From: Chiloscyllium plagiosum
Taxonomy: Eukaryota
Reading direction: 5' to 3'
DNA length: 64,000 nt
NCBI RefSeq assembly: GCF_004010195.1
Contig: NC_057719.1
Coordinates: 3,893,902-3,957,901 of the forward strand
The position numbers and the translations under genes were made by a program. Under the pieces are notes generated by a model. That model saw only the letters and a list, made by a program, of their open reading frames with translations, did not search any database and was not told the origin of the DNA. Every line of letters begins with the position of its first letter. Position 1 is the stretch's first letter. Below are positions 1 through 53,930 of this stretch, in pieces.

Positions 1-340
1 GTTCTAAACTTCCAGCTCAGCACTGTCCCCATGACTTGTCCGGACTTGTCCTACCTGCCTATCTCCTTTTCCACCTATCCACTCCACCCTCTCCTCCCTG
101 ACCTATCACCTTCATCCCCTCCCCCACTCACCCATTGTACTCTATGCTACTTTCTCCCCACCCCGACCCTCCTCTAGCTTATCTCTCCACGCTCCAGGCT
201 CACTGCCTTTATTCCTGATGAAGGGCTTTTGCCCGAAACGTCGATTTCGAAGCTCTTTGGATGCTGCCTGAACTGCTGTGCTCTTCCAGCACCACTAATC
301 CAGAATCTGGTTTCCAGCATCTGCAGTCATTGTTTTTACT
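1..340 (+). mobile_element. Penelope-like element 3' end / pseudo-LTR, abutting (probably inserted into) the L1 element
   Basis: C-rich tract and terminal sequence nearly identical to 48170-48444, which follows a GIY-YIG ORF. Contains a hammerhead motif. Confidence 0.8.
215..242 (+). ncRNA. Minimal type I hammerhead ribozyme motif
   Basis: CUGAUGA-A-GGGC(UUUU)GCCC-GAAAC-GUC. Confidence 0.75.
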
Positions 341-3300
341 ACGTTGACAGACCTTCTATTGCCAAATTACAAAGGATTACGGCCCTTAGGACAGCTCTGA
401 ATACCATGCTCACCCAAACGGCAAAGAGGGAAATATTATTTGCAAAACAAAGATTATATGAATTTGGCGATAAACCTGGTAGATACTTAGCATTTCTCGC
501 AAGGAAATAAAGGGCCCCTCAAGCTATCATGGCTATCAGGGAAAGTGCTGGTAATCTGACTCACGATCATAAAAGGATCAACACAATCTTCAGAAAGTTT
601 TATTTTGATTTATTTAAATCACAGGATTGTGAAGATAGAGCCTGGAGGATGCAGTCCTTTTTTAAAAGCCTGGCCTTTCTGGACTTAACCCCAGAACAGG
701 TATCGGTCCTGAATGCTCCCTTAACAACCCAGGAAATACTTGACACAATCAGGCAGTTTCAGAACGGTAAGGCACCTGGCCCAGGTGGATTTCAGGTTGA
801 ATTTTACAAAGAGTTCACAGAAGTATTGGCTGGCCCACTTATGGACATGTATAACTAATATAGTCAGGGCTGTCTCCTGCCTTAGCTGAAAGAGGCGAAT
901 ATCTCCCTTATTCTCAAAAAAGGAAAGGATCCAGAAGATTGTGCATCATACAGAGCAATATCCTTGCTAAATGTAGATTTTAAAATTCTCTTTAAAACAT
1001 TAGCATTGAGGCTAGAGAGGGTACTGCCATATATCACAAAAGAGGACCAGACGGGGTTTATCAAGGGCCCTAGATCATCTAATAATATTACAAGGGTCTT
1101 GAATGTGGTTCAAGTCTGTCATCAGGAAACAATATCGGGAATTGTAGTCTCATTGGACGCGGAGAAGGCATTCGACAGGGTTGAATGGTCATACCTGTTC
1201 TATACATTGGAAAGGTTTGGCATTGGAAAAGTATTTGTCAAATGGATAATGATCCCAAAGCAGTTGTGATCACCAATGGATTAGGCTCGGATAGCTTCAG
1301 TGTGGGTAGGGGCTGCCGTCAGGGATGTCCTCTCTCACCGTTGCTATTCTCGCTAATAATTGAGCCACTACATGGGCTGACTCTAATATAATGGCTCTGA
1401 GGGTTGGTACAGGTAAACATAAAATTACTCTTTATGCAGATGATGTTCTCCTTTTTCTTAGTAATCCTCTGATGTCCGTGCCTCACTTAATCTAAGTTAT
1501 TAATACATTTAGTGCATTTTCAGACTATAAAATTAATTTTTCAAAATCGGAGGCTATGCCAATGGGTGGCCTTGCTAGTATGTCCCACTTATTGGATGGA
1601 TCCCACTTCCCCTTTTAGTGGGCTCTGGAGGGTTTCTTATACTTAGGCATTTTTATCACCCCAGTATTTGATCAGTTATACAAGGCCAATTTTGTGCATC
1701 TATTGGAAAGGATAAGGCAGGACCTTCAACGTTGGGGTGACCTTCCAATTTCCTGGCTAGGTAGAATAGCCCGAATTAAAATGAATGTCTTGCCCCGTCT
1801 CCTATACCCTATGAGAATGCTCCCGGTGATGTTGCCGAGGCCGGCACTGCACAAATTGTATGGTTGGCTGGGTTCTTTCATCTGGAATCATAGGCAGCCC
1901 CTCATTAAGTTAAGGAAGCTACAACTTCCACAGGCAAGGGGAGGACTGGATTTTCCAGACTTTAGGAAGTATCAGTTAAGTTCCCTATTAAGCTACATAA
2001 CCGATTGGGTCTCGTCTGGCCCGCAATCAATCTGGCTGGACATTGAGGCTTCTCAAGTAAAGTGCCCTCTTATTAACCTCTTATTTTTAGATAAGATGAA
2101 AGTCATTACTGACCACTGTAAAAACTCTAAAGTACTAAACAGAATTAAAGCTTGGAATATAATGCGGCAAAATGAGGGTAATTCATATAAAACATCCCCC
2201 TAAACTCCTATAGTGGGGGCATGGGGTTTTCAACCAGGGCTTACAGATGCCACATTCAAATCCTGGAGATCCAGGGATATCTCCTCTTTAGGGGATCTGT
2301 TTGAGGAGGAGGTCCTGATGTCTTTTGAAGAGCTGCATCAGAAATTTGGATTACCAAATGGAGACCTCTTTCGATACTTCCAAATTCAAGACTACATACT
2401 GAAGAAGACTACGCTATTAGATAGTCTCTATAAATCAGATAGAGAACGTAGAATGTTGTGGCCAATGGGTGTAACCTCGGTCAGCACTCTTTATCATTTA
2501 TTACATGATGAAGTGTCGGAAGATATGGACCGTCTGCTTAGAACATGGGCTGGATTTGTGGCTGGAAATTTCAGATGTGGAATGACATCTGGGAAAATGC
2601 CCAAAAAATCTCCACTGTAATCGAACCCAGGCCATTCAGTTAAAGATACCTCATAGGGCCTATATGATACCGGAACGATTGGCAAAATTTAGGGCAGGAG
2701 TATCTCCAATGTGTCCCAAATGTAAAACAGAGGTAGGCACTCTTGCACATTGCTTATGGACATGTCATAAGACCCGCAAATATGGACCAAAGTAGTAAAC
2801 GCCCTGACAGAAATCTTGGGAACAGAAATTACAGTAGATCCAGTATCTCCTCTTCTGGGCTTCTCGAGCTTACCTTCTCTGGATGTGCACGGGAGGAAAT
2901 TATTTTCCCTTCTCTCCTTCTGTGCAAGGAGAAATATCTTAGTAAACTGGATGGCTGAAGGTCCTCCAGGACTTCCGAATTGGTACAGATTAATCATGGA
3001 ATGTATTCCCCTTGACTTCCTTACAAATATGGTGCACCAAAAAACTGAATTATTCTATAAAATATGGCAGCCCTTTTTGAATTACATAGATACAGATATT
3101 TCGGCCATTCGAACAAGGGCTTTCATCTAGTTGAGGTAACAGGACCCCTTGAGGGAGGAATCCCGCATGAATACGGGTTTTATTACAATTTGATGTTAAC
3201 TCATTCCGAGCATGTATTTCACTACTTAATTACTATGTTATCCTTCTTTTTTCTCTTGTATAATGTAAGATATTTGATCATACACTCTGGTTAGTTATAG

Positions 3301-3482
3301 GTTAGATTAGTAGTTAGTTGAGTTTTGTCTTTTCCTTCTCTGTATCTCTTCTTTTTGTTTGACAGGTTTTGGCTATTATTTATTTAAGATTTAATTGTAT
3401 ATTAGTGTTTGTACTTGTGTTTTTTTTATTTGTAAACTTGTAAAAACATGTTACATTTTCAATAAAAATATCTATTAAAAAA
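341..3482 (+). mobile_element. L1-clade LINE, decayed ORF2 and 3' UTR
   Basis: [40 protein letters not shown] (~1431-1448), GRIARIKMNVLPR, C-terminal CPKC..HCLWTC knuckle. Stop at 3130, AATAAA at 3461, short A tail. Multiple stops and frameshifts. Confidence 0.9.
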
Positions 3483-4229
3483 GGGTCCTAAGTAACAGCC
3501 CTAACTTTCTGTGTTCGGTTTAATGGGTACTTAGTGCATATTGAAAATATGCACTTAGTGTTTACTGAAAATCACAGGGAGTTTGATTTTGAGCAGTCAT
3601 TTCACAAGGCTAACAGAGTTGCAAAATATACGAAAATTTAAACTAATCTAGAACCCACAGGGTATTTGTCCCTTGCAACAACTTTCATAGTTATTTGCTG
3701 ACGTAATAGTGAGTGCATTAAACTCGTTATTATTGAACCAAATTCTGGTGCAATGTGTCTACAATGCTATTGACACGTTGCCCTTTGATACAAATGTGTG
3801 ACTTTATTGCTCCCTGCGTGTGGATTTTTTAGATGTGTTACATGCCTTTGTGATTGATAAATGGAACTTCTTGTGTCTCTGTCACTGTAAGTTGGAGGGT
3901 TAGGTCCATAAGTCAGCAATTGGTGATTGTATACATTTATTACAGAGGAAATATTTATAAAATAGTGAATGTGACTGGGTATGGATGGACTGCACTGATT
4001 GTTTGCATCTCTATCGTCACTCTATGGTGTATTTGTATGATAATAACTGTATTTGTTGCTTATATTGCTGGCTGCTTGTATGACTATTTTTGTTTTGAAA
4101 GATTTGTGACTCACTCTGCGATTTATGTGTATCTTTGTGTGTATTAGTTACAGTTGAGACCATATTGCGTATAATGGATCACGAGATTTTGGCATACTGC
4201 TGCATGCTTGTGGTACAAGGAGTGGACAT

Positions 4230-4990: not shown

Positions 4991-5004
4991 ATTCTCGAGT
5001 GTCC

Positions 5005-10730: not shown

Positions 10731-10867
10731 AATAGACAATTATTTCACTGTTTTCAATATTACTCTTGTTCCTAAATGTCATATTCAGTCCAATACTACC
10801 TTGGTGCTGCCACTCTCACCTCACTTTTTGAATCCAGCATGTTGCCCCTGTGTGAACAAAGGAACTC

Positions 10868-11183
10868 ATTGATTTTAACTTTACTGCGAATCCTCTTGCA
10901 AGGATGCCTACCTTGAAGAAGTTCCCCTCCTCTCTCCACAAGAATCTCAGTGAGTCTCTCTCTCACCGCAACCTCCAGGTCATCTCCTCTGCCCTGAAGC
11001 TCTGACCTATCACCTCTATCCCCACCCAAATTCACCTATTGTACTCTTTGCTACCTTCTCCCCACCCCCATTTATCTCTCCACCCTGGAAGCTTCCTGCC
11101 TCTATTCCTGATTAAGGGCTTTCTCCTGCTCCTCGGATGCTGCCTGACCTGGTGTGCTTTTCCAGCACCACTCTGATCTAAAC
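10868..11183 (+). mobile_element. Internally deleted Penelope-like element
   Basis: 3' half matches the Penelope terminal sequence with a degenerate hammerhead (ctgattaagggc). 5' half is an ORF-start-like segment (MPTLKKFPSSL..). Confidence 0.65.
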
Positions 11184-11379
11184 AAAGGGTGTAATGGGGT
11201 CAGGAGGTGAATGGTCCTAGCGGAATCTAGACCGAGATTTGTAAATGTTCTTATGGCATTGTTATATTCTATTATTTTGGTGTTCGAGATTGTCTAGATT
11301 AGAAAACAAAATGCTGGAAAACAAGAACAGAATTAGCTGGAGAAACTCGGGCAGCATTGCAGAGAGAGTGAACGTTTTG

Positions 11380-11573
11380 GGCAAAAGTGAGGACTGCAGA
11401 TGCTGGAAACCAGAGTCTAGATTAGAGTGGTACTGGAAAAGCACAGCTGGTCAGGCAGCATCCGAGGAACAGGAAAATCAGTTCCTGATGAAGGGCTTTT
11501 GTCCGACACGTCGATTTTCCTGCTCCTTGGATGCTGCCTGACCTGCTGTGCTTTTCCAGCACCACTCTAATCC
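11380..11573. mobile_element. Inverted (hairpin) Penelope terminal fragment nested in an older Penelope-type repeat (~11300-11735)
   Basis: Head-to-head copies of the terminal repeat flanked by agtgaacg duplication. Mutated hammerhead at 11485-11512. Confidence 0.8.
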
Positions 11574-14629: not shown

Positions 14630-17600
14630 TGGTTGGTGAAATAACTCCCGGTATCTGGGAGATCCTGGAAGGCTGGAGAGTAGCAAATGTTGTGCCATTA
14701 TTCGAGAAGGGCTGCAAAGGAAAGCCTGGGAACTATAGACCAGTCAGCTTAACATCGGAGGTGGGTAAGTTACTTGAGAAGTTCTGAGGGATAAGATTTA
14801 CTAAGTTACTTGAGAAGTTCTGAGGGATAAGATTTACATGCATTTGGAAAGACCGGATTTAATTAAGAGTAGTCAACATGACTTTGTGAGTGGGAGATCA
14901 TGCCTCACAAATTTGTTAAGAGTTCTTTAAGGTGACCAGGAAGGTTGACAAGGGCACAGCAGTAGACATAGTTTATATGGATTAGGCAAAAGTGAGGACT
15001 GCAGATGCTGGAGATTAGAGTTGAGAGTGTGGTGCTAGAAAAGCACAGCAGGTCAGGCAGCATCCGAGGAGCAGGAGAAAACCCTTCATCAGGAATTGTA
15101 GTCTATGTGGATTTCGGTAAGATTCCACATGGTAGGCTGCTCTGGAAGCTTAGATTGCATGAAATCCAAATTTATGCTAGCAAATTGGTTACACAATTGG
15201 CATGATGGTAGGAAGCAAAGGGTAACAGTGAAAGAATGTGTATTGAGTCGGAAGAGATAGGAAAGGTCTTGAATGAGTACTTTTCTTCAGTATTTACAAA
15301 CGAGAGAGACCGTATTGTTGAAGAGTAGAGTGTGAAACGGACTGGTAAGCTAGAGGAGATACTTGTTAGGCAGGAAGATGTGTTGGACATTTTGAACAAC
15401 TTGAGGATAGACAAGTCCCCCGGGCCTGAGGGGATATATCCTAGGATTGTGGGAAGCAAGAGAGGAAATTGCAGTACCGTTGGCAATGATCTTTTCGTCT
15501 TCACTGTCAATGGGGGTGGTACCAGGGGACTGGAGAGTGGCGAATGTTGTGCCCCTGTTCAAAAAACGGAATAGGGATAACCCCGGGAATTACAGGCCAG
15601 TTAGTCTTACTNNNNNNNNNNNNNNNNNNNNNNNNNNNNNNNNNNNNNNNNNNNNNNNNNNNNNNNNNNNNNNNNNNNNNNNNNNNNNNNNNNNNNNNNN
15701 NNNNNNNNNNNNNNNNNNNNNNNNNNNNNNNNNNNNNNNNNNNNNNNNNNNNNNNNNNNNNNNNNNNNNNNNNNNNNNNNNNNNNNNNNNNNNNNNNNNN
15801 NNNNNNNNNNNNNNNNNNNNNNNNNNNNNNNNNNNNNNNNNNNNNNNNNNNNNNNNNNNNNNNNNNNNNNNNNNNNNNNNNNNNNNNNNNNNNNNNNNNN
15901 NNNNNNNNNNNNNNNNNNNNNNNNNNNNNNNNNNNNNNNNNNNNNNNNNNNNNNNNNNNNNNNNNNNNNNNNNNNNNNNNNNNNNNNNNNNNNNNNNNNN
16001 NNNNNNNNNNNNNNNNNNNNNNNNNNNNNNNNNNNNNNNNNNNNNNNNNNNNNNNNNNNNNNNNNNNNNNNNNNNNNNNNNNNNNNNNNNNNNNNNNNNN
16101 NNNNNNNNNNNNNNNNNNNNNNNNNNNNNNNNNNNNNNNNNNNNNNNNNNNNNNNNNNNNNNNNNNNNNNNNNNNNNNNNNNNNNNNNNNNNNNNNNNNN
16201 NNNNNNNNNNNNNNNNNNNNNNNNNNNNNNNNNNNNNNNNNNNNNNNNNNNNNNNNNNNNNNNNNNNNNNNNNNNNNNNNNNNNNNNNNNNNNNNNNNNN
16301 NNNNNNNNNNNNNNNNNNNNNNNNNNNNNNNNNNNNNNNNNNNNNNNNNNNNNNNNNNNNNNNNNNNNNNNNNNNNNNNNNNNNNNNNNNNNNNNNNNNN
16401 NNNNNNNNNNNNNNNNNNNNNNNNNNNNNNNNNNNNNNNNNNNNNNNNNNNNNNNNNNNNNNNNNNNNNNNNNNNNNNNNNNNNNNNNNNNNNNNNNNNN
16501 NNNNNNNNNNNNNNNATAGGGGGGATGTCAGGGGTGGGTTCTTTACCCAGAGAGTGGTGTGGGCATGGAATGCGCTGCCTGTGGGTGTGGTAGAGTCAGA
16601 ATCTTTGGTGACCTTTAAGCGGCAATTGGATAGGTACGTGGATGGGTGCTTAAGCTAGGACAAATGTTCAGCACAACATCGTGGGCCGAAGGGCCTGTTC
16701 TGTGCTGTATTGTTCTATGTTCTATGTTCTATGAAGCTTGTCGGACTTGAGGCCTGTGACTACTGGAGTGTCTCCGGGGTTGGGGCTGGACTCATTACTG
16801 TTTGTTATCTGTAAGAATTATTTGGATGAGAATGTACAAGCCATGACTAGTAAGTTTGCTGATTACACTAAAATAGGTGGTATCATGGACAGTGAGGAAG
16901 GTTATCAGAAATTGCAGCAGAACCTTGATCAGCAGGGGAAGTGGGCTGAGAAATGGCAAATGGAGTTTATTCTAGATAAGTATGAGTTTGGAAAGTCAAG
17001 GTAAGAGTTTCATGGTGAATGGCAGGGCCTTGAGGAGTGTAGTGGAACAGAGGGATCTAGGCGTTCAGGTTAACTGTACTCTGAAAGTGGAGTCACAGGT
17101 AGACAGGGCAGTGAAGAAGGCTATTGGCACACTGGCCTTCATCAGACAGGGCATTCAGTATAGAAGTTGGGAAGTTATGTTGCAGTTATATAGAACATTG
17201 GTGAGGTCACACTTGGAGTATTGTGTTCAGCTTTGATCTCCTTGCTATGGGAAAGATGTTATTAAACTGGAAAGAATGCAGAATAAATTTACAAGGATGT
17301 TGACTGGATTCAATGATCTGAGTTATAGGGAGAGATTGGACAAACTAGGGCTTTTCTCTTTTAGAGCATAGGAGACTGAGGGGTTGGGGTGGGGGGTGGG
17401 GGGGGAATCCTTTATAGAGATGTATAAGATCATGAGAGGCATGGATAGAGTGAGTGCACTCAGTCTTTTTCCCAGGATTGGGGAATCGAGGATTAGAGGG
17501 CATCAGTTTAAGATTAGACAGAATAGAATATAAGGGAACCTGAATGGCAACTTTTTACACAGAGGGTGGTACATATATGGAATGAGCTGCCAGCGGAAGT

Positions 17601-17776: not shown

Positions 17777-17939
17777 GGGAGGCAAAAGTGAGGACTGCAG
17801 ATGCTGGAAACCAGAGTTTAGATTAGAGTGGTGCTGGAAAAGCACAGCAGGTCAGGCAGCATCTGAGAAGCAGGATTTTCCCGCTCCTTGGATGCTGCCT
17901 GACCTGCTGTGCTTTTCCAGCACCACTCTCATGTAAAAC
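17777..17939. mobile_element. Inverted Penelope terminal fragment
   Basis: Perfect 16-bp TSD ctgtaggattctatca (17761-17776 / 17940-17955). Inverted arms. Confidence 0.85.
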
Positions 17940-27938: not shown

Positions 27939-28034
27939 TTCTGGATTAGTGGTGCTGGAAGAGCACAGCAATTCAGGCAGCATCCGAGGAGCAGTAAAAT
28001 CGACGTTTCGGGCAAAAGCCCTTCATCAGGAATC
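27939..28034 (-). mobile_element. 96-bp Penelope terminal fragment with hammerhead
   Basis: 14-bp TSD tcccattgactcca (27925-27938 / 28035-28048). Confidence 0.85.
28002..28029 (-). ncRNA. Minimal hammerhead ribozyme motif
   Basis: Minus strand CUGAUGA-A-GGGC(UUUU)GCCC-GAAACGUC. Confidence 0.75.
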
Positions 28035-28907: not shown

Positions 28908-30712
28908 GATAGTACTGTTGATGATGCCTTCCATCACTTTACGGATGATCAAGAGTAGATTGGGGCAGTTATTGTCTGGGTTGGGATTTTCATGCTTTTT
29001 GTAAATAGGATATTTCTGGGCATTTTTCCATATTGCTGTTTGGAGTGTGGTAGCTGGACTGGAACAGCTTGAATTGAGGCATGGCTAGATTTGGAACATA
29101 AGTTTCCAGGACTATATTTGGAATATTGCCAGATGCCATGGCCTTTGCAGTGTCTGGTGCCTTCAACCATTACATGATATGGCATGGAGTGGCTAAATAC
29201 TGGCAGCTATGATACTGAGCACCACACGAAGAGGCCAAGATTGATTATCAATTCAGTGTTTTTGGCTGAAGACTGTTGTAAATACCTTGTGTTTTGCAGC
29301 GATGTGCTGGGCTTCTCCATATTTGAGAATAGGAATATTTGTGGAACCAGCTTTACCGGTTAGGTGTTGAATAGTTTTTAACCACTATTTACGTCTGGAT
29401 GTGGCAGGACTGCAGAGCTTACTGTGTGTGTTGCAATATTGCTTAGCTCCACACAGATGCTGCCAGACCTGCTGAGTTTCCCAGCAATTTCTATCTTTGT
29501 AGATTTCCGCTTTTAGCTCTTTCATCACCTCCTGTAGACCCAGTCTTGCAGCTATGTCCTTCAGAACTCCTCCTGTTTGATTAGCAATGGTGCTACTGAG
29601 CCACTCTTTGTGATGGACTTGAAATCTCTTCACCTCCATCCAGAGTTCGTTCCACATTCTTACCAACTTCAGTGCTTCTTAAAATTGGTGTTCAGCATGG
29701 AGGAATATTGATTCATCAGCCGAGGCATTTGTTGGGGCTTGTGATAGGTGTTTTTAATCATTCATGGGATGGGGATGGCACTGGCTAGGCCTGCATTTAT
29801 TGCCCGACCCTAATTGTCCAGAGGGCAGTTTAGAGTCACCCACATTGCTGTGGGTCTGGAGTCACATATAGACCAGACCAGGTAAAGATGTCAATTTCCT
29901 TCCCCTAAAGGACACAAATGAGCCAGATGGGTTTTCCCTGACCATTGGCAATGGTTTCGTAGTCATCATTAGATTCTTAATTCCAGATTTTTTTTAAAAT
30001 TCACATTCCACCATCTGCCATGGTGAGATTCCAACCCGGGTCCCCAGGACATACTGGATCTCTGGATTAATAGTCCATTTATTATACCACTCAGCCATTG
30101 CCTCCATGCCCATGTTTGACCTGAAGCCATGAGACTTCATTGCACCCGGATCAAAGTTGAGGACTCCCTCCCAAGTACTTCCACTCTTAATGGGTTTGCT
30201 CTGCTTCTGGGCCAGGACATACCCAGGAATGGTAATACAGGTATCCTTTACCAAGTATGATTACACTATTGCTCAACTTGTCTGTATCTCTCCTACAAAC
30301 AGAAACTCTGGATGTTAGTAAGGAGAAATCTGCAGGAATGACCAGATGAACCATTGTTTTTCTGATGCTTAGTCTCTTGCCAGGTGGACCAAAATAATTA
30401 ATTCATTTTATTATGCTTTGTATCGGTTTGGTAGCACTGAATGGCTTGCTAGGCCATTTCTTAGGGTATTTACAAGTCAACCACATTTCTGTGGTATGGA
30501 GTTGGTAAGGACAGCTGAATTTCTTCCCTAAAGAATATTAATAAACCAGGTGGGTTTTTAGGATAATTTACAGTGGTTTAGTAATCATGCACTAGCTTTT
30601 AATTCCAGATTTATTAATCGAATTTAAATTTCACCTGCTACTTTGGTAGGACTTGAACCTGTATCCCCAGAGTATTAACCTGGACCTTGTTTGTACAATG
30701 ACTTTTTTTTTC

Positions 30713-31120: not shown

Positions 31121-32387
31121 ATCATTGCTTCCACTATGTCTCGCCAATCTGCTCAATTTTGCTTCGGCTATCACATCCTGACTTGCTGCTTAATTAACAC
31201 CTCAAGCCAAGGAGTGTCTTTGGAGTGTCTTTTAAGAGCTGTGAATATCATGGTGAAATATAACACTATGAAAACATCATATCATGGAGACAAAATACCA
31301 CAGGGATGTTATTGTTATGGTATGCGGGCAGTCAGGTAAGTAAGAGTGCTGGCTGAGGCAGTAATTATGGCAGCTGTAATAATAAACTATCATACTGAGG
31401 AATTTACTCTGCATCGCACAAAAGGAAGCAGCAAATTTGGCAGGTACATGTATGCATAAAAGATTTCTCAGGCCATATCTATCCAGTAATGGTGCAGATG
31501 TTAATTTGAAAATCTAATCACTCGATGCTTTATTACTTTCTCAGAAGAGAATGGTTCATGGTCAGGAGTGAATCTAGGTGGATCATGGAATTATTGCACT
31601 GCAGAAGGAGTCCATTCAGCTCTCTTGTCTGCTCTGGCCCTCTGAACGAGCAATGTGATTTAGTACCAATCTCTTGCATTTTTCTCTTGTGCATTGTTTT
31701 CCATTTAAATATTCACTAATGCTCTCTTAAATGCCTCAGTTGAACTTACCTTCATCACAATTCCAAGTAGTGCATTCCAGACCCTAACTACTCATTGTGT
31801 GAAAAAGTTTTTTAAATCTGGATCTTAAATGGAAAGCAGTTGCTTTAATCTAATCTTACTGTTTTTCAGTATTTGGAGTTGAGGCTTGTTGGAGTGAGGG
31901 GGCAACGTAGACAAGGCATAGACATTGGCTGAGGGTAGTGCTGATAAGTGAGTTTTTCAAATGTATTAACTCCCTCAGTTTAATAAGCAGGAAAGGGTTT
32001 TCAGTAAGCTCTTGTTTTGACATGTTTACTGATGAATTAGAAACTTTTTGCATTCATTCTTGCAATGTACCAGTCATTAACAAATCTGGAATTTATTGTT
32101 TATCCCTAATTTTTCTTGTGGTATGGTGAGTTACTGCCATGAACCACTTTTGGTCAAATGTAGTGATGGTATTACAGCAGTAATGACAAGACTTTGACCC
32201 ACAATGGTAAAACATAGGTAATACTGTATAGTTAATGGTATGAGTTTTCAGCAGAGTGTTTTACCTGATGCAGCAATGGTTCTTATCTAGGAGAAAGTGA
32301 GGACTGCAGATGCTGGAAATCAGAGCTGAAAAATGTGTTGCTTGAAAAGCGCAGCAGGTCAGGCAGCATCCAAGGAGGAGGAGAATC

Positions 32388-32415
32388 GACGTTTCGGGCA
32401 TAAGCCCTTCTTCAG
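32388..32415 (-). ncRNA. Minimal hammerhead ribozyme motif
   Basis: Minus strand CUGAAGA-A-GGGC(UUAU)GCCC-GAAACGUC. Confidence 0.75.
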
Positions 32416-32432
32416 GAATGGCTTCTTCATTC

Positions 32433-32460
32433 CTGAAGAAGGGCTTATGCCCGAAACGTC
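32433..32460 (+). ncRNA. Minimal hammerhead ribozyme motif
   Basis: CUGAAGA-A-GGGC(UUAU)GCCC-GAAACGUC. Confidence 0.75.
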
Positions 32461-33210
32461 GATTCTCCTGCTCCTTGGATGCTGCCTGACCTGCTGCGGT
32501 TTTCCAGCAACACATTTTTCAGAATGGTTCTTATCTCCCATGACATCATAAACTGGGCATGGAAAATGGGATTGAAGACAACAACAGACATATTACAACA
32601 ATTATACACAAATATTGCACCACTCAGCCACATAAGTATCTGGGCTGACATTAAGCTATGCTATAACAGAGGACCATGCTTCCAATAGCACACTATGCTT
32701 CAAATCTCCAAAGTAAGGAGTATGAGACCTTTACACTCGAGGTCACATTCTGTGTTACACAGATGATAGCATGATGTATACTGAGTGTAAGACATAACAC
32801 AACAGTTGCAAGTTAGAATGGTATGTGCCTTGAAGGGGGACTTGCAGGAGGTGATACTCCCATGTATCTGCTGACCTTGTTTCCTTTTGTGGAGTTGATC
32901 ACCGGTTTCAAAGGCACCTTAGTGAGTTGCTGAAGTGCCAGTGTTGGAAGGAATGAATGCTGAAGGTGTTAGATTGTTAATAATATAGGCTGTTTTAAGA
33001 TTCTTGTCCTTAAAAAGCTTTCATGTAATAAAAACTCCTGTGTTCCTCTTTGACTAAGTCATTGTTTTTCTCATCTCAGCAGAGCTGTTACTACTTGACA
33101 GGACTTGGAAACATCAAGGTCTAATTTCCATTTAACCACATTTCCCCACAGTTTTTTAAATGGTCTCTTGGGAGATCTCATACAGAGCTGTAACTCCATA
33201 ATTTAGACTT

Positions 33211-35489: not shown

Positions 35490-38400
35490 GTCTGATTCCA
35501 ACCAGGGAAAACACCTATTTTGCTACCCCTTTTCAAGTATTTTGTAAGTTTCAATTAAATCACCACTTTTTCTTCAAAACTCTAGCAATTACATGCCCGG
35601 TTGTCCCGGTCTCTTGACGGGACAGTTCTACCATCCTGTGAACAAGTCTGGTGAAACTTTAATTGCATTCTCTTTATGGCAATGACATTTTCCTGAAAGA
35701 AGGAGACCAAGATTGCGCACAATACTCCAGGAATAGATAACCAAGTTAATAATCAAGTATAAGAAAGAAATTGCTATTTTTGTACCCAATCCTATTATGA
35801 TAATGGCTAACATTCCTCCAATCACTAACATTCCTCCATTCCTAAGACCTTGATGGACCTAAATGTTAGCCTTCGATGACTTATTAACAAGGTCACCCAG
35901 GTCCCTTTGCATATCCACACTTGTCAGTCGTTTACTATTTAAGAAATACTCTGCATGTGTTTCTCCTACCAAAGTGGATAGCCTCACGTTTTCCACCTTG
36001 TATTTACATCTATCATGTTCTAATTCACCTACTCAGTAAGACTGCTTAAATTCTCCTGTAGCCACTTTACATCTTCCTCACATCACACCCCCACTTAGTT
36101 TTCTATTGGCCACGCATTTGGAAATATTACATTTGGTTTTCACTTCCCAATCCCTGATATATAATGTGAACTGCTGGGACCTATGTACTTATCCTGAGAG
36201 TACCCACTAGTCACACCCTGTCAATGTAAGAATTATCTATTTATTCCTACTCCCTATTTATTTTCTGTCTTGGCCAATCGTTTGTCCATGCCAGTGCATC
36301 ACCTCACACCTCTTGTGCTTTAACATTTCTAAACAGCCTCCTGTGCGGGACTTTCTCAGAGATGGATTTTGTGGGTTTGTTTTCCTGGCGTTGAGGAATC
36401 ATGGTGGAGAGTGGGTTATGATCAGGATGTTTCCTTTTCTTTTGGCTTTTAGAGTCATAGAGATGTACAGCACGGAAACAGACCCTTCAGTCCATCTCAT
36501 CCCCGCTGACCAGATATCCTAACCTAATCTAGTCCCATTTGCCAACACTTGACCCATATCCCTCTAAATCCATTCTATTCATATACCCAGGAGAAAGTGA
36601 GGACTGCAAATGCTGGAGATCAGAGCTTAAAAATGTGTTGCTGGAAAAGCGGCAGCTCATTCCATACATGTACCATCCTTTGCATGAAAAAGTTGCCCCT
36701 TAGGTCTCTTTTATATCTTTCCCCTCTCACCCTAAACCTATGCCCTCTAGTTCTGGACTGCCCCACCCCAGGGGAAAAACCTTGTCTATTTACCCTATCC
36801 ATGCCCCTTATGATTTTGTAAACCTCGATAAGGTTACCTGTCAGCCTCTGATGCTCCAGGGAAAACAGCCCCAGCCTATTCAGCCTCTCCCGATAGCTCA
36901 AATCCTGTAACCCTGGCAACATCCTTGTAAATCTTTTCCGAACCCTTTCAAGTTTGTCAACATCCTTCTGATAGGAGGGAGACCAGAATTGCAGACAACT
37001 TTCCAAAGGTGGCCTAACCAATGTCCTGTACAGCCGCAACATGACCTACCAACTCCTGTACTCAATACTCTGACCAATATGAGAAAGCATACTAAATGCC
37101 TTCACGCTCTTATCCATCTGCAACTCCACTTTCAATGAACTATTCTTTCATTTTGGTTTCTGGTTTTAATCCTGTCTTTTGTATGCTAAGATGGCAGTAG
37201 AGAATGGCGACTTTGTACACTTTTCACTGTACTCCTGGATTCCTGTGCTCTAGTGCAATTAAATTTAAATCCAAGCAAACTACTTCCATCAGGTCCTGGG
37301 GATTTATCAACTTTCAGCCCCATTAATTTGTCCAGTATGATATTTTTTACTAACATCAATTTCTTTCAATCCCTCATTATCCCTAGCCTCTTGGATCTCT
37401 AATTCTGGGGGTTTCTTGAATATTCCTGAGTGACAACAGATGCTAAATGATCTTTCGGAATCACTGTCATTTCTCTCTTCTCTAATATAAATACTCCGAC
37501 TCTGCCTACCTAATGGATTAACATTTGCAACGTATAGAAAATTTATTTTCCATTTCTGTTTTTTGTTGCAAGGTTGTATTCATATTCAATTCTCCGTTTC
37601 TTTATCAGTTTCAGAGTTCTCCTTTCTTGTATTCTATAAATTCACAATCCTCAGAATTACTGCTATTTGTGGCAACTTTTCTTTTAATCCTATCCAATTG
37701 ATCATATCCAGTGGGTCAACAAACTCACTTCCAAACATAATGTAAGATTCTATCATATTTTGGTCATTTATCCCTAAAGATCCATATACAATAAGGAAGG
37801 TAATGGCCTTGTGGTATTACCGCTAGACTAGTAATCCAGAGAATCAGAAAAATGTCCTCCTGACCTGAGTTCGAACCACCAATGGTGAGGCACTAGCAAA
37901 TCTTCCTGGGGCATATTAGTCATGGTCTTATTATGATGCTCTCCCTTCTAAACCAATTCTCCACCCATGTATTTATACAATCAATCAAGCAATCAATCCT
38001 CATTTTCTTCTAGTCACTTGTGCGAGTAACTGGAGTCATCCTGAGGTGACTGCCTTTGAGATTTTCCTTTTTAAATTTCTTTGTAACTCACTGAAATCTG
38101 TCTTCACGACCACATCATTTGGTCTAATGACATAGTTATGACACTGTGGGCCACAATACCTGGCAGATCCCCATCTCCCTTCGCAATGGCCTGCAGTCAT
38201 GCTGTGTCATCCTTGACCCTGCCACCAAAAATGCAACCTGCTGCCTTGTTTACTGCCACAGAAACACTCTTGGATCCCCTGCCTGTGGGATACTGTATCA
38301 TTATTACCCTTCTACTTTTTTCTCCTCCCTTCTTCAATTGAGTCACCTGTGGTGTCATGGGGTTGGCTCTTGCTGAACTGTCCTGACGAACCATCACCTC

Positions 38401-43419: not shown

Positions 43420-44800
43420 TATAGAAAGTAGAAACAGAAGTAGGCCATTCAGCCCTTCAAATCCATTCTGCACTTTAATGAGATCATGGATGGTCTGATA
43501 ACCCTCAATACCGCTTTCATGCTTTTATCCCCCAAAACCCTTGATTCCCAACCTGATTTAAAATCAGTTTCAACCTTGATATACTTAATAGTCCAGTCTC
43601 AATAGCCTTTTGTGATAAAAGAATTCTACAGATATACTACTTTCTGAGAGAAGAAATTCCTCCTCATTTTTGACTTAATTGGGCGACCTCTTACTTTGAG
43701 ATTAGGTCCTAGACTTTCGCACAAGGGGAAACAACCTTTCAAGTTAATCTGCTGAATCCTCTAAGAATCCTGAATGTTTCAATAAGGTCAGCATTCATTC
43801 ACCCATGTTCCAAAAAGTACAGACCCAATCCACCCAACTTCTCCCCATAAAACAGTCCCTCCAATTTTCAGCCTCGTGAACTTCTCTGGACTGCCCCTAA
43901 TTCCAGGATATTTCCTGAGATAAGGGACCCAAAATTGTTTACAGCATTCCAGCTGTGGTCTGACTAGTGCCCTGTTTCATTTTAACAAAGCCCCTATTTT
44001 TATACTCCTAAAGCCTCAGAAGTACATCCCTGCTTTTATATTCTAGTCTTCTTGAGACAAATGACAACATTGTTTTTACTTAGGAAGGTAAATACAAAGC
44101 GCTGCAGATGCTGGAAACCAGATCTACTGACTCAACCTGCAAGTTTACCTTAAGAGAAACCTGCACTAAGAATCCCAAGTCTCTTTGCACTTCAGACCTC
44201 TGAATTTTCTCCCCATTCAGAAAATAGTCCGTGCCTCTATTCTTCCTACCAAAACGCATGACCTCACACTTTCCCACATTTTATTTCATCTGCCACTTCT
44301 TTGCCTACATTCCTAACCTATCTAAATCTTTCTGCAAGGTGAAAGTGAGGACTGCAGATGCTGGAGATTAGAGTTGAGAGAGTAGTGCTGGAAAAGCACA
44401 GCAGGTCTGGCAGCATCCGAGGAGCAGGAGAATCTACATTTTGGGCAAAAGCCCTTTAGGAATCTTTCTGCAGCCTCTCTGCCCCCTCAATACTACCTGC
44501 CCCTCCACCTATCTTTTGCAGATGTTACAAACATTGCCAGAATGCCCTCAGTTCCTTCATCTAGATTGTTAATGTATAAAGTGAAAGGTTGTGGTCCCAA
44601 CACTGACCCTTGTGGGACACCACTAGTCACCTGCTTCTAACCTGAGAGGATCTCTTTTATCTCCACTCTCTGCCTTCTGCCAAACAGCCAATTTTCTATC
44701 CATATTAGTACCTGGCCTCTAACACCATAGGCCCTTATCTTATTCAGCAGCCTCCTGTGCAGCACCTTATCAAAGGCATTCTGGAAGTCCAGATAGATTC
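43420..44800 (-). mobile_element. CR1 LINE with Penelope fragments at ~44080-44123 and 44337-44460
   Basis: KCEVMRFGRKN..QRDLG motif. 12-bp TSD aatctttctgca (44325-44336 / 44461-44472). Confidence 0.8.
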
Positions 44801-46926: not shown

Positions 46927-48444
46927 CATCAAACCATCATCTCCCAAACCATACAGAACCTCATCACCTCAGGAGATCTCCCACCCACAGCCTCCAACCT
47001 CGTAGTCCGGAAACCCCGCACCGTCCGATTCTAACTCCTTCCCAAGATCTACAAGCCTGACCACCCTGGCCGACTCATTGTCTCATCCTGCTCCTGCCCC
47101 ACCGAACTCAACTCCATCTACCTCGATACTGTCCTATCCCCCCCAGTGCAGGAACTCCCCACACAAGACACCACCCATGCCCTCCACTTCCTCCAAGACT
47201 TCCATTTCCCTGGCCCACATCTTCACTATGGACATCCAATCGCTCTACACCTCCATGACCAGGGTCTCCAAGCCCTCAGTTTCTTCCTCTCCCGATGCCC
47301 CCAACAGTACCCTTCCACTGACACTCTCATTCGGTTGGCTGAACTGGTCCTCATCCTTAACAATTTCTCCTTCGAATCCTCCCACTTCCTCTGAACCAAA
47401 GGGGTTGCCATGGGCACCCATATGGGCCCCAGCTATGCCTGCTGCATGCCCTCCAATGCATCTCATCCACATCCCGCACCTCTGCCCTCAAACCCCACCC
47501 TTCCAACCGTAACAAGGACAAGACCCCCCGGTCCTCACTTTCCACTCTACCAACCTTCCCATTAACCACATCATCCAACAACATTTCCGCCACCTCCAAA
47601 CGGACCCCACCACCAGGGATATATTTCCCTCCCCACCCCTTTCCGCTTTCCGCAAAGACTGTTCCATCCGTGACTACCTGGTCAGGTCCACGCCCCCCCA
47701 ACAACCCACTCTCTCTTCCTGGCACCCTCTCCTGCCACCGCAGGAATTGCAAAACCTGCGCCCACACTTCCTCCCTCACCTCCATCCAAGGCCCCAAAGG
47801 AACCTTCCACATCCATCATAGTTTCACCTGCACATCCACTAATATCATTTATTGTATCCATTGCTCCTGATGCAGTCTCCTCTACATTGGGGAGACTGGA
47901 CGCCGCCTCGCAGAGCGCTTTAGGGAACATCTCCGGGACACCTGCACCAATCAACCCCACCGCCCCATGGCCCAACATGTCAACTCCCCCTCCCACTCTG
48001 CCGAGGACATGCAGGTCCTGGGCCTCTTCCACCGCCGCTCCCTCACCACCCGACGCCTGGAGGAAGAACTCCTCATCTTCCACCTCGGAACATTTCAACC
48101 CCAGGGCATCAATGTGGACTTAACCAGTTTCCTCATTTCCCCTTCCCCGCCCACCTTGCCCCAGTTCCAACCTTCCAGCTCAGCACCATCCTCATGACAT
48201 GTCCTACCAGCCAATCTCCCTTCCCACCTATCCACTCCAACCTCCTCTCTGACTTATCACTTCCATCCCCATCCCCATTCACCTATTGTACTCTTCTCCG
48301 CAACTCCCCCACCCCCATTTATCTCTCCACCCTAGAGGCTCACTGCTTCTATTCCTGATGAAGGGCTTATGCCCGAAACGTCGATTTTCCTGCTCCTCGG
48401 ATGCTGCCTGACCTGCTGTGCTTTTCCAGCACCACTGATCTAAA
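46927..48444 (+). mobile_element. Penelope-like retroelement (RT + GIY-YIG endonuclease), 5'-truncated and decayed, inserted in a CR1 (~46445-49640, - strand)
   Basis: LLPKIYKPDHPGRLIVS, FTMDIQSLYTS, KGVAMGTHMGPSYAC, CHRRNCKTC, TCTSTNIIYCIHC..YIGETGRRLAERFREH. 15-bp TSD ctcagccttgaatat (46912-46926 / 48445-48459). Confidence 0.93.
48355..48382 (+). ncRNA. Minimal hammerhead ribozyme motif at the 3' end of the Penelope element
   Basis: CUGAUGA-A-GGGC(UUAU)GCCC-GAAACGUC. Confidence 0.78.
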
Positions 48445-48858
48445 CTCAGCCTTGAATATATCTAATGATCTGATTTTGATAGCTCTCTGGTAAAGATTCA
48501 GTATCACCAGCAAGACGAAATTCCTCCTCATCTCTATCCTGACTGGGAGATCCATTATGCCCACTGATCATAGACTCTCTTACAAAGTAAACAACATCTC
48601 CGCATTTATGCTCTCAAGCCTCCTAAGAATTTTGGATGTTTAAATAAGGTCACTCTAATTCTTCAATGAGTACAAGCGCAATCTATTTAACCTCTCCTCA
48701 TAACAAAGTCACTTTATACCCAGAATCACCTTAGTTAACCGGCTCTGTTCTGCTTGCAATACCTTTCCTTTGATAAGAGGACGAAAATTGTTCACAATAT
48801 TCTGATGTGGTGTAACTAGTGCTTTGTATAGTTTTAGCAAGACCTGCCTATTTTTATA

Positions 48859-49272
48859 CAGGTAGTTCTCCAATTACAGTGAAACCTTGTTTAGTAGAAA
48901 TAATGGGGCCAATGGGAAAAGTGGGGTTAGGGGCAGACCAAACAATATTGCTCAATAATTGCCCAAAAGTCTAACGCAAAGTAAAGCACAACTTAAATGG
49001 AGGTTGAAATCCTATTTATTAACAAAACAAAAGTAAATTTAATACAGCACATTTTTAAAAATGTACGAAAGCTGCTTACTGTACAGTAGCTCTCACAGAA
49101 AGCTGCTGTATAATTAGCTGACATCGCACATGCACCGAACAGCAGAAAAACCAGCACTCACGTCGCATATGCTGGTGCATGTGCAGAATGGCTCAGAGAT
49201 TTCAGCATGCATGTGCAGAACGAAGCACGTGAACTGATCCTTGCTGAAATCATGCTCTTGCAAAAGGAGGTA
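48859..49272. mobile_element. Probable Tc1/pogo-type DNA transposon fragment inside the CR1
   Basis: Begins TA|caggtagttctcc and interrupts contiguous CR1 sequence. Internal gcatgtgcagaa repeats. Second TIR not seen. Confidence 0.4.
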
Positions 49273-50754
49273 ATATTCCATTTGTCTTCCCTTTTACCTG
49301 CTGAGCTTGTATGCGAGCTTTGTGTTTTATACATAAGGACTCCTAGCTTCCTGTGCAGTCATTCTCCATTTAAATTATAATTAGCTCTTCAATTCCTCAT
49401 GCTAAAGTATGTAACCTCACATTCTCCCACATTACAAGCCAAGTTTTGGACAACTCCCTTAACCTGTTGATTTCCCTTTGTAGACCTTTCTCATCCACAC
49501 TACCTGCCTACCCACCTAATTTTGTATAATCCACAAACTTGGTGATAGTATATTTGTTTCCCTCATCCAAGTCATTATTACATTGTAAATAATTGTGGTC
49601 TCAGCACTGATCCCTGTGTCAGTCTACAGGCTCACCAGTCTTTGGATGAAGAAATTTCTATTCTTAGTCGTAAGTGGTTGACCCATTTTCCTTAGACTTA
49701 TGGCCCCTAATTCTGGACACTCCTGCCATTGAAAACATCCTTCCTGTGTCTACTTGGAAGGGAATTTGCATGTAGAGTTGTTTCCACACATCTGCCTTTA
49801 TCCTTCTAGGTAACAGAAGTTTAGAAGGTGCTAACAGAAGAAGGAGCTTTGGTGTGTTACTGAAGTGTATTTTGTAGATGGTATACTTTCCACTGTGTGA
49901 AGAGAGTGAATGTTGAAGGTTGTGAATGGGGTGCAATCAAGCAGATTGTTTGTTTCTTTTTCTTGGATGGCATCTAACTTCTTGAGTATTTTTGGAACTA
50001 CACACACCAGGAAAGTAGAAAATACATCATCACACTCTTGACTTGCCTTATGTCTCTTAGATAATCATAGAATCCCTACAGTGTGGAGGCAGGCCATTCC
50101 ACCCATCAAGTCCACTCCACCCCTCTGAAGAGCATCTCACCCAAACCCACGCTGCCCATCCCTGGAACCCTGCATTTCCCATGGCTAATCGACCTATCAT
50201 GCACATCCCTGGAAACAATGGGCAATTTAGTATGGCCAATTCTCCTAAGCTGCCCATCTTTGGACTGTGGAAGAAAACCAAAGCACCTGAAGGAAAGCCA
50301 TGCAGACATGCGAAAAATGTGCAAACTCCACACAGACAGTCACCTGAGGCTGGAATCGCACTGCCTCCCTGGCGCTATGAGGCAATATGCTAACCGCTGA
50401 GCCACTGTGCTGCCCAGGCATTGGGGAGATGGGAACTGAATTACTGACAGCAGGATTCCCAGCCTCTGACTTGCTCTTGTATCCACAGAATACATCAGGC
50501 TAGTCCAGTTCAGTTTCTGGTCAGTGGTAATATCTAGTGTGCTGATAATTGGGGATTCAGTGAAAGTAATGTCATGGAACATCAAGGGGCGATGATTATA
50601 TTGTCTTGTTGGAGATGGCCATCACCTGACACTAGTTACAAATGTTCGTTGCCACTTATTAGGCCAAGCCTGGATATTGTCCGGTCTTGTTGCATTTGGA
50701 CATGAACTGCTCATTATCTGAGTTGTTGCAACAAGGTGAGGGCAACAAGGTGAG

Positions 50755-50892
50755 AGCTTTTTATTCCTGATGAAGGGCTTTTGCCCGAAACGTCGATTTT
50801 TGCCTGTCCTCGGATGCTGCCTGAATTGCTGTGCTCTTCCAGCACCACTGATCCAGAATCTGGTTTCCAGCATCTGCAGTCATTGTTTTTAC
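50755..50892 (+). mobile_element. Penelope terminal fragment with hammerhead
   Basis: 13-bp TSD caaggtgagggca (50732-50744 / 50893-50905) plus an extra partial copy at 50745-50754. Confidence 0.85.
50767..50794 (+). ncRNA. Minimal hammerhead ribozyme motif
   Basis: CUGAUGA-A-GGGC(UUUU)GCCC-GAAACGUC. Confidence 0.75.
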
Positions 50893-53715: not shown

Positions 53716-53930
53716 TCTGGATCAGTGGTGCTGGAAGAGCACAGCAATTCAGGCAGCATCCGACGAGCAGCAAAATCGACGTTTCGGGCAAAAGCCCTGA
53801 TTCCTGATGAAGGGCTTTTGCCTGAAACGTCGATTTTGCTGCTCGTCGGATGCTGCCTGAATTGCTGTGCTCTTCCAGCACCACTGATCCAGAATCTGGT
53901 TTCCAGCATCTGCAATCATTGTTTTTACCT
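53716..53930. mobile_element. Palindromic Penelope terminal fragment in the tail of a CR1 (CR1s ~53690-55170, - strand)
   Basis: 83-bp inverted arms (53716-53798 / 53811-53893). 16-bp TSD catagaa(g/a)tagaagta. Confidence 0.88.
53804..53831 (+). ncRNA. Minimal hammerhead ribozyme motif (G-U variant in stem II)
   Basis: CUGAUGA-A-GGGC(UUUU)GCCU-GAAACGUC. Confidence 0.65.

Follow-up and report, generated by a model that had tools for sequence, protein, structure and literature searches.

Short hammerhead-bearing insertions in a bamboo shark genome as probable products of a Neptune-type Penelope-like retrotransposon

Introduction

Why should a single stretch of shark DNA carry many copies of a minimal hammerhead ribozyme, and does the ribozyme shape the RNA from which these copies are made? 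The question is raised by a 64,000-nt region of the Chiloscyllium plagiosum genome (GCF_004010195.1, NC_057719.1, positions 3,893,902 to 3,957,901; hereafter the window), for which an initial annotation had proposed that the motifs process the RNA of Penelope-like elements (PLEs). The role of the Penelope hammerhead has been called unclear (PMC8557442). No description of the family in sharks was found by title or abstract start in the literature, most subscription papers and Repbase being outside the coverage of the search.

Results and discussion

Hammerhead motifs in the window

A pattern scan of the window identified six exact matches to the motif (starting at 215, 32433, 48355 and 50767 on the plus strand and at 28002 and 32388 on the minus strand), compared with an expected 0.00 in 100 shuffles of the window, while the motif at 53804 on the plus strand is one base off the pattern. 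The count of seven intact motifs given previously therefore holds as six exact copies and one with a single-base difference, yet these represent only six insertion events, since 32388 and 32433 are the two arms of one insertion inside a single 14-bp duplication. As had been reported, the seven vary only at position 7, in loop II and at a single pair of stem II. The latter is the G10.1-C11.1 pair adjoining the core, which reads G-U in the 53804 motif; as this is a CpG transition that the opposite arm of this insertion does not share, it is indicative of decay rather than of tolerated variation.

All seven copies carry the CUGANGA and GAAA core with GUC as the NUH cut triplet, and the extra nucleotide that separates position 9 from 10.1, the G10.1-C11.1 pair and stem II are present in six of them (with the above G-U in 53804). 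A palindromic ACGU at 15.2-16.2 takes the place of a stable stem III, and stem I is weak, consisting of two pairs, a U-U and one further pair; both features had been described correctly. Among the mutated copies, 11485 shows two substitutions and 44435-44462 seven differences, whereas an identical 18-nt stretch, beginning in loop II and ending just beyond the cut site, is missing from those at 11108 and ~15083. Both variants common to subfamilies fall in the five free positions of the 28 (p 0.026), while private changes strike the core. The assignment to the minimal type I hammerheads of Penelope-like pseudo-LTRs (pLTRs) is borne out by the presence of all hallmarks of the type described in 2014, and the motifs are a known end-signature of PLEs.

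As described in Cervera and De la Pena 2014 (PMC4209133), the hammerheads of metazoan PLE pLTRs have the same conserved core, extra 9/10.1 nucleotide, G10.1-C11.1 pair, palindromic 15.2-16.2 positions without loop 3, and short stem I. They also occupy the same place in the repeat after the ORF, mostly as single dispersed motifs on truncated copies, with opposite-strand pairs. The window family differs from that account in its stem II of only 4 bp and in the composition of stem I; no shark is named in the first half of that paper. A search with Rfam models, suggested as a check on the motif, did not recover it: hammerhead models gave no match in the window at E<=1, the nine matches obtained being eight miRNA models on inverted pairs and one snoRNA model (E 0.98).

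A family of 13 loci

Altogether, the family comprises 13 loci with 17 arms and 3423 bp in the window, more than had been listed before. Locus K (46927..48444, plus strand) is a Neptune-type element, 5'-truncated and internally deleted, within a 15-bp duplication (46912-46926/48445-48459). Its ORF (46927..48131) encodes the N-terminal half of a reverse transcriptase (RT), the thumb, a C-x4-C-x2-C linker (~47733-47760) and a GIY-YIG endonuclease. In tblastn searches with P0006 and P0001 as queries, this ORF was colinear with both and 79-85% identical to P0006, its best matches being bamboo-shark proteins; it begins at P0006 residue 245, lacks residues 424-572, including the RT catalytic YIDD, and contains stops and frameshifts. 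An RT linked to GIY-YIG in one ORF does precede the motif at 48355, as had been claimed, but the ORF is broken, and the motif sits ~220 nt beyond the last residue aligned to the P0001 endonuclease. The GIY-YIG profile gave E values of 0.057 in the window frame and 0.00025 in P0001, with Pfam scores under the cut-off. The linker corresponds to CX2-5CxxC before a C-terminal GIY-YIG, and on this sequence feature the clade can be narrowed to a Neptune-type PLE, with the qualification that linkers of this type are common to Neptune and Nematis. Downstream, ATTC (48351..48354) forms the 5' strand of stem I and represents the dominant 5' boundary of short copies, followed by the intact core (48355..48382, predicted cut after 48382).

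Two further loci on the plus strand are of the long type. Locus A (1..340), which precedes an L1/Tx1-like fragment (RVT_1 in 886-1266), retains only the 3' portion of a long copy, with 3' UTR, hammerhead and long tail, has its left end beyond the window, and is 78% identical to 48164-48440; its intact core (215..242) has a predicted cut after 242, and in a predicted long-range helix (259..322) residues 259-266 would pair with tail residues 315-322, enclosing the proximal 3' end. Locus B (11003..11180) has a short 3' end and a hammerhead with G8>U and the 18-nt deletion. It may extend left to 10863, with a tentative 8-bp duplication (10855-10862/11181-11188). A 47-codon frame at 10862-11002 was rejected as a PLE N-terminus, as none of seven candidates scored.

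The single short copies are, as had been noted, little more than ribozyme and tail. Locus D (14984..15097, minus) runs from ATTC to a long tail, carries the same 18-nt deletion as B and has a 15-bp duplication with two mismatches. Locus F (27939..28034, minus) is a 96-bp insertion that begins with an extra G and ATTC, carries the hammerhead at 28002-28029 and a short end, and is flanked by a 14-bp duplication. Locus J (44337..44463, minus) starts at ATTC, with a decayed hammerhead, a long tail and a 12-bp duplication, ATT being common to element start and target duplication. Locus L (50755..50892, plus) starts ~8 nt before ATTC and has an intact hammerhead (50767-50794), a long tail and a 13-bp duplication (50732-50744/50893-50905). 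Two minus-strand loci are tail-only fragments, namely H (36588..36652; G-type subfamily) and I (44088..44123; 36 bp).

The remaining four loci are head-to-head pairs. In C (11375..11573), whose 8-bp duplication abuts both ends, the minus arm (11375-11479; long tail) starts exactly at the cut site and the plus arm starts at the ATTC position, with a mutated hammerhead (11485-11512) and a short end. Locus E (17777..17939; 16-bp duplication) lacks the core; its plus arm has a short end and begins at +1 to +3 relative to the cut site (2-nt overlap), and its minus arm has a long tail. Locus G (32289..32522; 14-bp duplication), with 9 nt between its two ATTC, carries an intact hammerhead on each arm, namely 32388-32415 on the minus arm, which has a long tail, and 32433-32460 on the plus arm, which has a short end. 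The plus arm of M (53716..53930; 16-bp duplication, one mismatch) consists of an extra G, ATTC, the hammerhead (53804-53831, with G-U at 10.1-11.1) and a long tail, and its minus arm starts inside stem II and has a short end.

Ends of the insertions

Target-site duplications of 8-16 bp were observed for most short copies. Of the 12 loci for which both flanks are available, 8 have duplication scores of at least 9, a level reached by 0.75% of 2923 random pairs; the score is 8 for C and for B, a value that 2.9% of random pairs attain, while H is weak and I has none. Leaving out H and I, the 3' ends of the 15 remaining arms lie at either +62 to +67 (seven arms) or +98 to +106 (eight arms) from the cut site. 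These two ends, ~36 nt apart, are the known Penelope 'tail', a stretch of 30-40 bp between two RT start sites (PMC11167929), and each of the four inverted pairs has one long and one short arm. Direct or inverted pLTRs, an optional 30-40-bp tail and a target-site duplication are hallmarks of EN+ PLEs (PMC3846280, PMC8557442), and all are found at the window loci. Coding capacity of the tail was rejected, since subfamilies differ by 1-2-nt indels.

At the 5' side, 8 of the 17 arms start at ATTC, 32 nt upstream of the cut, or up to ~8 nt before it, and keep the whole core. Only two start at the cut site (the minus arm of C exactly, the plus arm of E with an ambiguity of 2 nt). Among arms that retain the 5' core, 8/11 start within ~13 nt of the 5' side of the core, compared with 1/43 in two invertebrate families with the same core (Fisher p 1.3e-6, the copies not being independent).

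Predicted folding and covariation

Folding predictions gave stem I pair probabilities of 0.000-0.028 in all seven intact copies, with monomer folds that bury the core, and stem II outer pair probabilities of 0.68-1.00. The best predicted dimer is an inactive duplex (-25.9 kcal/mol), and the ACGU duplex between two molecules is predicted at -3.1 kcal/mol; for hammerhead cleavage, the modelled folds favour inactive monomers and dimers. RNAalifold applied to eight long-tail arms predicted a tail helix of nine pairs (columns 50-58), kept in 8/8, with three one-sided and no two-sided changes.

Of 73 distinct motifs in the DNA of other animals, 53 showed the inner stem II pairs, compared with a mean of 12.3 and a maximum of 23 in shuffles. 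Stem I, which lies outside the search pattern used, shows pairs 1-3 in 35, 31 and 24 of 43 animal families, compared with 15.0, 12.9 and 11.1 expected; pairs 4-7 show no excess across these families. Covariation was therefore obtained for stems I and II across animal families, suggesting that the fold is selected, but not for stem II within the window's own family, where no compensatory change was found.

Boundaries in public read runs

Genome-wide counts rest on public reads (runs X1, X2, X15 and X21) at an 85% likeness cut-off. The main 5' boundary in these reads is ATTC (48351), with more than one thousand contigs per DNA run (X1, X2). Loose ends before 48351 were observed in 1393 (X1), 1562 (X2) and 329 (X15) contigs and in 481 reads (X21), and the pile lies at 48351 rather than 48383 in all four runs, with a flank agreement of 0.33-0.45. 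The consensus letter before 48351 is C in the four runs, and part of the pile may be supplied by another subfamily with a different upstream sequence. A splice-acceptor origin of the boundary found no support: no GT..AG was seen among the 15 joints listed (394 further), and no AG precedes ATTC.

RNA reads were found over the motif on either strand; of these, 96% continue into unlike sequence, as expected for read-through of dispersed copies. No pile of RNA starts or ends was seen in X21, a fragmented single-cell library that may be unable to show one. No RNA data set with locus K was listed.

Origin of the short insertions

Taken together, these observations make it probable that the insertions are products of an abundant Neptune-type Penelope-like retrotransposon, with ATTC as the 5' end of its RNA and the stubs as by-products. 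As most short copies begin just before the motif and not at the cut, they would be copied from mostly uncut RNA. The element RNA may begin at ATTC or slightly ahead of it, by a few bases, probably from a Pol II start, which would place the hammerhead at its very 5' end. The RT/endonuclease protein would then nick the target and initiate reverse transcription internally on the RNA, from either of two sites, which the two 3' ends suggest to lie ~63 and 100 nt beyond the cut; this step has been demonstrated in vitro for the lizard element PAc (PMC11167929). A start at the 5' signal copy would yield a 95- or 130-nt stub reaching the RNA 5' end, a start at the downstream copy longer 5'-truncated elements such as K, and priming on both nicked strands the head-to-head pairs, in which a long arm is joined to a short one. 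Staggered nicks, the trace of which is visible in the sequence, account for the 8-16-bp duplications. The ribozyme would be kept by selection in source elements and cut rarely, only as a dimer via ACGU and probably assisted by the element's protein, leaving most templates uncut; copies would decay neutrally after insertion.

As to the proposed RNA start, the match to the initiator pattern at the ATTC boundary is weak, since this pattern occurs 13 times per kb per strand. An extra G before the element start is a possible cap trace. Such a G precedes ATTC in 3/7 arms (p 0.16); the figure rises to 4/7 (p 0.039) only with the post hoc inclusion of a base at D that has undergone CpG decay, and nothing relevant to a cap-derived G was found in the literature, and it represents a weak lead. 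Also counting against a start at ATTC is D. virilis, in which the start is located well upstream of the hammerhead.

It is unlikely, though the best of the alternatives, that the 95-130-nt unit propagates itself as a non-autonomous element (SINE- or retrozyme-like), with transcription of some stubs from ATTC and their renewed mobilisation in trans by the Neptune protein. Such a unit would fit the fixed ends and the duplications of its own, as well as head-to-tail joints in 16 (X1) and 31 (X2) contigs and far deeper coverage of the stub region than of the ORF in X21 (2457 reads at 48387 vs 125 at 48349), a ratio that the 85% likeness cut-off inflates. In a rotifer, pLTRs alone can mobilise DNA in trans (PMC3846280), and pLTRs are a source of vertebrate retrozymes (bioRxiv 2026.07.22.740005). 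On the other hand, PAc requires RNA well beyond the starts (111-118; first 172 nt of the ORF) that would be missing from a stub (PMC11167929), and the window, with only monomers and head-to-head pairs, contains no tandem array. Moreover, subfamily tails are common to short and long copies (A with F, L and M; K and B with C and E), which appear to intermix in a small comparison of 15 arms over 46 nt. The distinct non-autonomous element suggested previously is thus not upheld, as internal initiation on autonomous RNA accounts for the stubs.

It appears improbable that, as first proposed, the element RNA is cleaved by the ribozyme and normally serves as template in its cut form. The selected fold, the two arms at or near the cut and inverted joints linking 48351 to 48383 (14, 9 and 2 contigs) speak for such cutting. 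Against it, eight arms retain the whole core, 48383 is not among the 24 loose-end positions listed (2115 further, so that this sets no limit on it), and ribozyme mutants of PAc insert normally (PMC11167929); nor is the cut site a unique peak, since joints at 48385, 48386, 48388, 48389, 48391 and 48400 were observed in 3-18 contigs each in X1.

An ATTC boundary made at the DNA/cDNA step, by RT halt after hairpin unwinding, ATT-preferring second-strand joining or an alignment start between subfamilies with different 3' UTRs, is very doubtful: the PAc endonuclease prefers ATT, J and its target share ATT, and a 9-nt motif recurring beside 48351 in the loose-end consensus of three runs suggests another upstream type, but F, D and the plus arms of M and C pass from duplication or inverted arm into ATTC within 0-2 nt and with no second upstream type, the remaining duplications lack a terminal ATT, and the two invertebrate families with the same core show no such boundary.

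Comparison with known systems and significance

The by-product origin preferred here agrees with findings on PAc, the Poseidon element of Anolis carolinensis (Frangieh et al. 2024, PMC11167929), which likewise has a hammerhead and, behind it, two 3' ends spaced by 30-40 nt, priming of both strands and, as proposed here, an uncut RNA template; its hammerhead needs protein. PAc belongs to the Penelope/Poseidon clade and its ORF starts at the core ATG, whereas the window element has a Neptune-type linker, and an equivalent ORF start was rejected because the frame closes after 16 codons in K. With the Neptune clade (Craig et al. 2021, PMC8557442) the family shares RT followed by C-terminal GIY-YIG, the CX2-5CxxC linker, direct and inverted pLTRs and a tail at one end only. 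It differs in having clean 8-16-bp duplications without microsatellite targeting and a repeat that is very short and whose 5' edge is fixed.

Non-LTR retrozymes (Li, Clavereau and Pollet, bioRxiv 10.64898/2026.07.22.740005), reported in one chondrichthyan and including many monomers, likewise derive from pLTRs and are small, non-coding and equipped with a type I hammerhead. By definition they are tandem, with at least two consecutive hammerhead units, whereas no such array was found within the window; head-to-tail joints occur elsewhere, in related genomes. No pLTR boundary could be drawn from the L080/L081 sequences, which match at 99.9% identity wherever they overlap.

The evidence says that the ribozyme is conserved yet mostly does not cut the inserted RNA, as in vitro for the lizard element. 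Because the insertions are very many, short and sharply bounded, template ends become countable in vivo; the family is of use as supporting data and as a lead, open to testing, on the RNA start, rather than as a new kind of element. A bolder reading, which we regard as speculative and rather unlikely, is that shark element RNA starts at stem I's first base, and that promoter edge, silent ribozyme and two RT starts (tail-closed helix) form one 130-nt module that is both the commonest product and a self-propagating minimal retroelement. If so, the Penelope mechanism would be recorded in vivo in thousands of genomic junctions, showing an uncut template, two-strand priming at different starts and cut RNA that is seldom used.

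There is no sign of a host function. The scan for host genes covered 85 of 180 frames with at least 72 aa, and only RT and a sub-threshold CH match were found. One match was observed in viral contigs.

Identification of the hammerhead family

Six exact matches to the hammerhead motif were identified in the window, compared with 0.00 in 100 shuffles, and a seventh copy (53804) carries a single mismatch, in agreement with the positions assigned in the initial annotation. The G-U pair of the 53804 copy, which adjoins the core, represents a CpG transition and is absent from its sister arm. Although all seven motifs previously listed as intact were recovered, they represent only six insertions, because 32388- and 32433+ sit within one duplication. 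A blast search of the repeat against the window, with inspection of each flank, delineated a family of 13 Penelope-like element (PLE) loci (A to M) comprising 17 strand-wise arms and 3423 bp in total.

The minimal hammerhead type of PLEs was described in 2014 by Cervera and De la Pena, and the window motif exhibits all four traits given in that paper (PMC4209133), i.e. the core, an extra base before stem II, G10.1-C11.1 and a palindrome replacing stem III. The family is real and of a kind known since 2014. No Rfam model captured the motif in a search of the window. Titles and opening lines of abstracts in the literature search pointed to no publication on copies from sharks or on a stem I boundary; PMC6155905 mentions sharks only in connection with the name, a 2026 retrozyme preprint (bioRxiv 10.64898/2026.07.22.740005) includes one chondrichthyan, and the supplements of that preprint and of PMC4209133 may list the family.

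Conservation and predicted folding of the hammerhead

To test whether the fold is selected, metagenome contigs were scanned with a looser pattern, yielding at least 123 matches in at least 122 stretches. Among the matches listed, 53 of the 73 distinct motifs have at least two inner stem II pairs (shuffle mean 12.3, maximum 23). Stem I was left out of the search pattern and scored in 43 family representatives (one of 44 was dropped for its short flank): among the matches listed, positions 1-3 form Watson-Crick pairs in 35, 31 and 24 of the 43, compared with 15.0, 12.9 and 11.1 in shuffles, and positions 4-7 display no excess over shuffles. The expected covariation was thus observed as a pairing excess in both stems across other families, but not as a compensatory stem II change within the window's own family, where none was found. 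In the latter, both shared variants occupy free positions (p 0.026) and private changes strike the core. On one metagenome contig (L016, L017) the motif comes after an ORF of 47% identity, and an inverted copy lies upstream.

In stem I of the window family a U-U separates two pairs from a third, with a computed energy of +1.4 kcal/mol, consistent with the weak pairing noted initially. In the best predicted monomer fold the core pairs with the cut site, while that of the dimer is an inactive duplex spanning the cut site (-25.9 kcal/mol); the first stem I pair has a predicted probability of 0.000-0.028 in all seven copies, and head-to-head pairs are predicted to form long hairpins with the motif buried inside. 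The favoured folds of monomer and dimer would both be inactive forms. In published work, hammerhead dimer tests gave low cleavage (PMC4209133), cleavage by the hammerhead of PAc, the Anolis carolinensis Poseidon element, depends on protein (PMC11167929), and one of nine Xenopus retrozyme dimers was active (bioRxiv 10.64898/2026.07.22.740005); PMC6765202 summarizes dimer cleavage.

Target duplications and 3' ends

Duplications scoring at least 9 were found at 8 of the 12 loci with both flanks, such scores occurring in 0.75% of 2923 random pairs; loci C and B have 8-bp duplications, that of locus H is weak, and none was found at the flanks of locus I. The duplications thus show the stubs (short copies of 95-130 nt) to be insertions rather than remnants of deletion. 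Across the family, 3' ends lie +62 to +67 after the cut in seven arms and +98 to +106 in eight, corresponding to the known 30-40-bp PLE tail; Frangieh et al. attributed this tail to internal starts of the RT at two sites (PMC11167929). The same two 3' ends occur in the two largest invertebrate families among the metagenome matches listed. All four inverted pairs combine one long and one short arm (chance expectation 1 in 16), as in the rotifer elements described in PMC3846280. In metagenome stretch L077, positions 473-669 contain a head-to-head pair with two intact hammerheads, whose unequal 3' arms share 82 and 63 nt with relatives, in the layout of locus G.

The tail is predicted to pair with a segment 17-24 nt past the cut, nine pairs being kept in all eight arms. 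Because the changes in this putative helix are exclusively one-sided (three, with zero two-sided), it is regarded as a lead only.

5' ends and the inserted template

The 5' starts of the 17 arms comprise eight at, or up to ~8 nt before, ATTC (the 5' strand of stem I, 32 nt upstream of the cut), three long, two at the cut (C- at the precise position, E+ between +1 and +3) and four elsewhere. These eight arms speak against the proposal that the ribozymes process the element RNA: a copy with its core complete, starting 32 nt upstream of the cut, must derive from uncut RNA, so the inserted template was mostly uncut. Under the simplest reading, the element RNA would begin at ATTC, and internal initiation near that RNA end would produce stubs. 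Locus L carries ten extra bases at its 5' junction (50745-50754) that copy part of its target site, resembling a template jump onto the target.

Four runs were aligned to 47850-48450, spanning the 3' part of locus K, at 85% likeness. Loose ends before 48351, where ATTC starts, were counted in 1393 and 1562 contigs from two DNA-like runs (X1 and X2), 329 contigs from a possible RNA run (X15) and 481 raw RNA reads (X21), with a flank agreement of 0.33-0.45. The 24 loose-end rows listed, with 2115 more beyond them, do not include 48383 (the cut site), which sets no limit on its frequency. Inverted joints link 48351 with 48383 in 14, 9 and 2 contigs; they also link it with positions in 48385-48400, each of which has 3-18 contigs in X1. 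Joints of the head-to-tail kind were found in 16 (X1) and 31 (X2) contigs. Copies of other subfamilies that differ upstream would likewise be clipped at 48351, and the loose-end consensus contains a recurring 9-nt motif that points to such a type. Raw RNA depth was 2457 reads over 48387 versus 125 over 48349, both strands were covered and 96% of aligned reads continue into unlike sequence, a pattern consistent with read-through of dispersed copies. The raw RNA reads showed no pile-up of molecule starts.

As a control, members with at least 100 nt of upstream flank were hand-counted in two invertebrate families (29/32 and 14/20). A stop within 13 nt of the core was found in 1 of 43 such members versus 8 of 11 here (p 1.3e-6, with copies not independent and measures that differ). 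In L047, L060, L095 and L096, which form a family of invertebrate type whose stem I is longer, the upstream sequence that the members share ends 5-22 nt before the core. Because this four-member family stops there and another metagenome family has its upstream edge near 48 nt, fixed 5' edges may be family-specific.

ATTC is indicated, weakly and indirectly, as a transcription start. The boundary has an initiator-like match, to a pattern that arises 13 times per kb by chance. An extra G at a 5' junction can be a trace of the cap; it precedes ATTC in 3 of 7 arms (p 0.16), and is opposed by the consensus base before 48351 in reads, which is C. The shark layout would differ from that of Drosophila virilis Penelope, because the latter is transcribed from an internal promoter whose start site lies upstream of an intron ending at helix I (PMC2377424 and PMC4209133).

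A separate non-autonomous family, as initially suggested for the short copies, is possible but not needed, as short and long copies have common tails, and PAc requires RNA beyond its own start sites (PMC11167929). The hammerhead remnants of loci B (11108-11125) and D (15075-15092) share an 18-nt deletion that took out the 3' half along with the cut site, yet the two loci are independent insertions with different subfamily tails; either the deletion recurred between short T runs, or copies with a dead ribozyme were mobile.

Locus K and the parent element

Locus K (46927-48444) is a single insertion with a 15-bp duplication. Its ORF, interrupted by stops and frameshifts, starts at residue 245 of the bamboo-shark protein P0006 and lacks residues 424-572, including the catalytic YIDD stretch. 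The endonuclease frame at 47874 matched Chiloscyllium punctatum proteins (74-76% identity), and an RT piece has 86% identity to C. punctatum and 79% to Mobula hypostoma, pointing to a genome of shark type. A C-x4-C-x2-C linker precedes the GIY-YIG motif, and the element is therefore putatively assigned as Neptune-type; linkers of this type mark Neptune and Nematis and are missing from Penelope/Poseidon, according to PMC8557442.

The 140 nt at 10863-11002, flanked by a possible 8-bp duplication on one side and by locus B on the other, include a tract of pyrimidines, CAAG and an ATG frame of 33 codons, with neither a protein match nor a second copy in the window. This segment could be the element's 5' region, deletion-joined to its 3' end.

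Surrounding sequence

The window represents repeat-rich DNA containing LINE fragments. A broken L1/Tx1-like LINE ORF (340-3130) lies directly 3' of locus A, and a 904-base N run (15612-16515) falls within a CR1-like fragment. Distant relatives of the post-ribozyme segment at 29456-29486 and 56851-56883 are probably older PLE families without a recognizable core. A weak calponin-homology match at 62469-62759 (residues 53-80, E 0.0075, below the cut-off) may represent a host exon.
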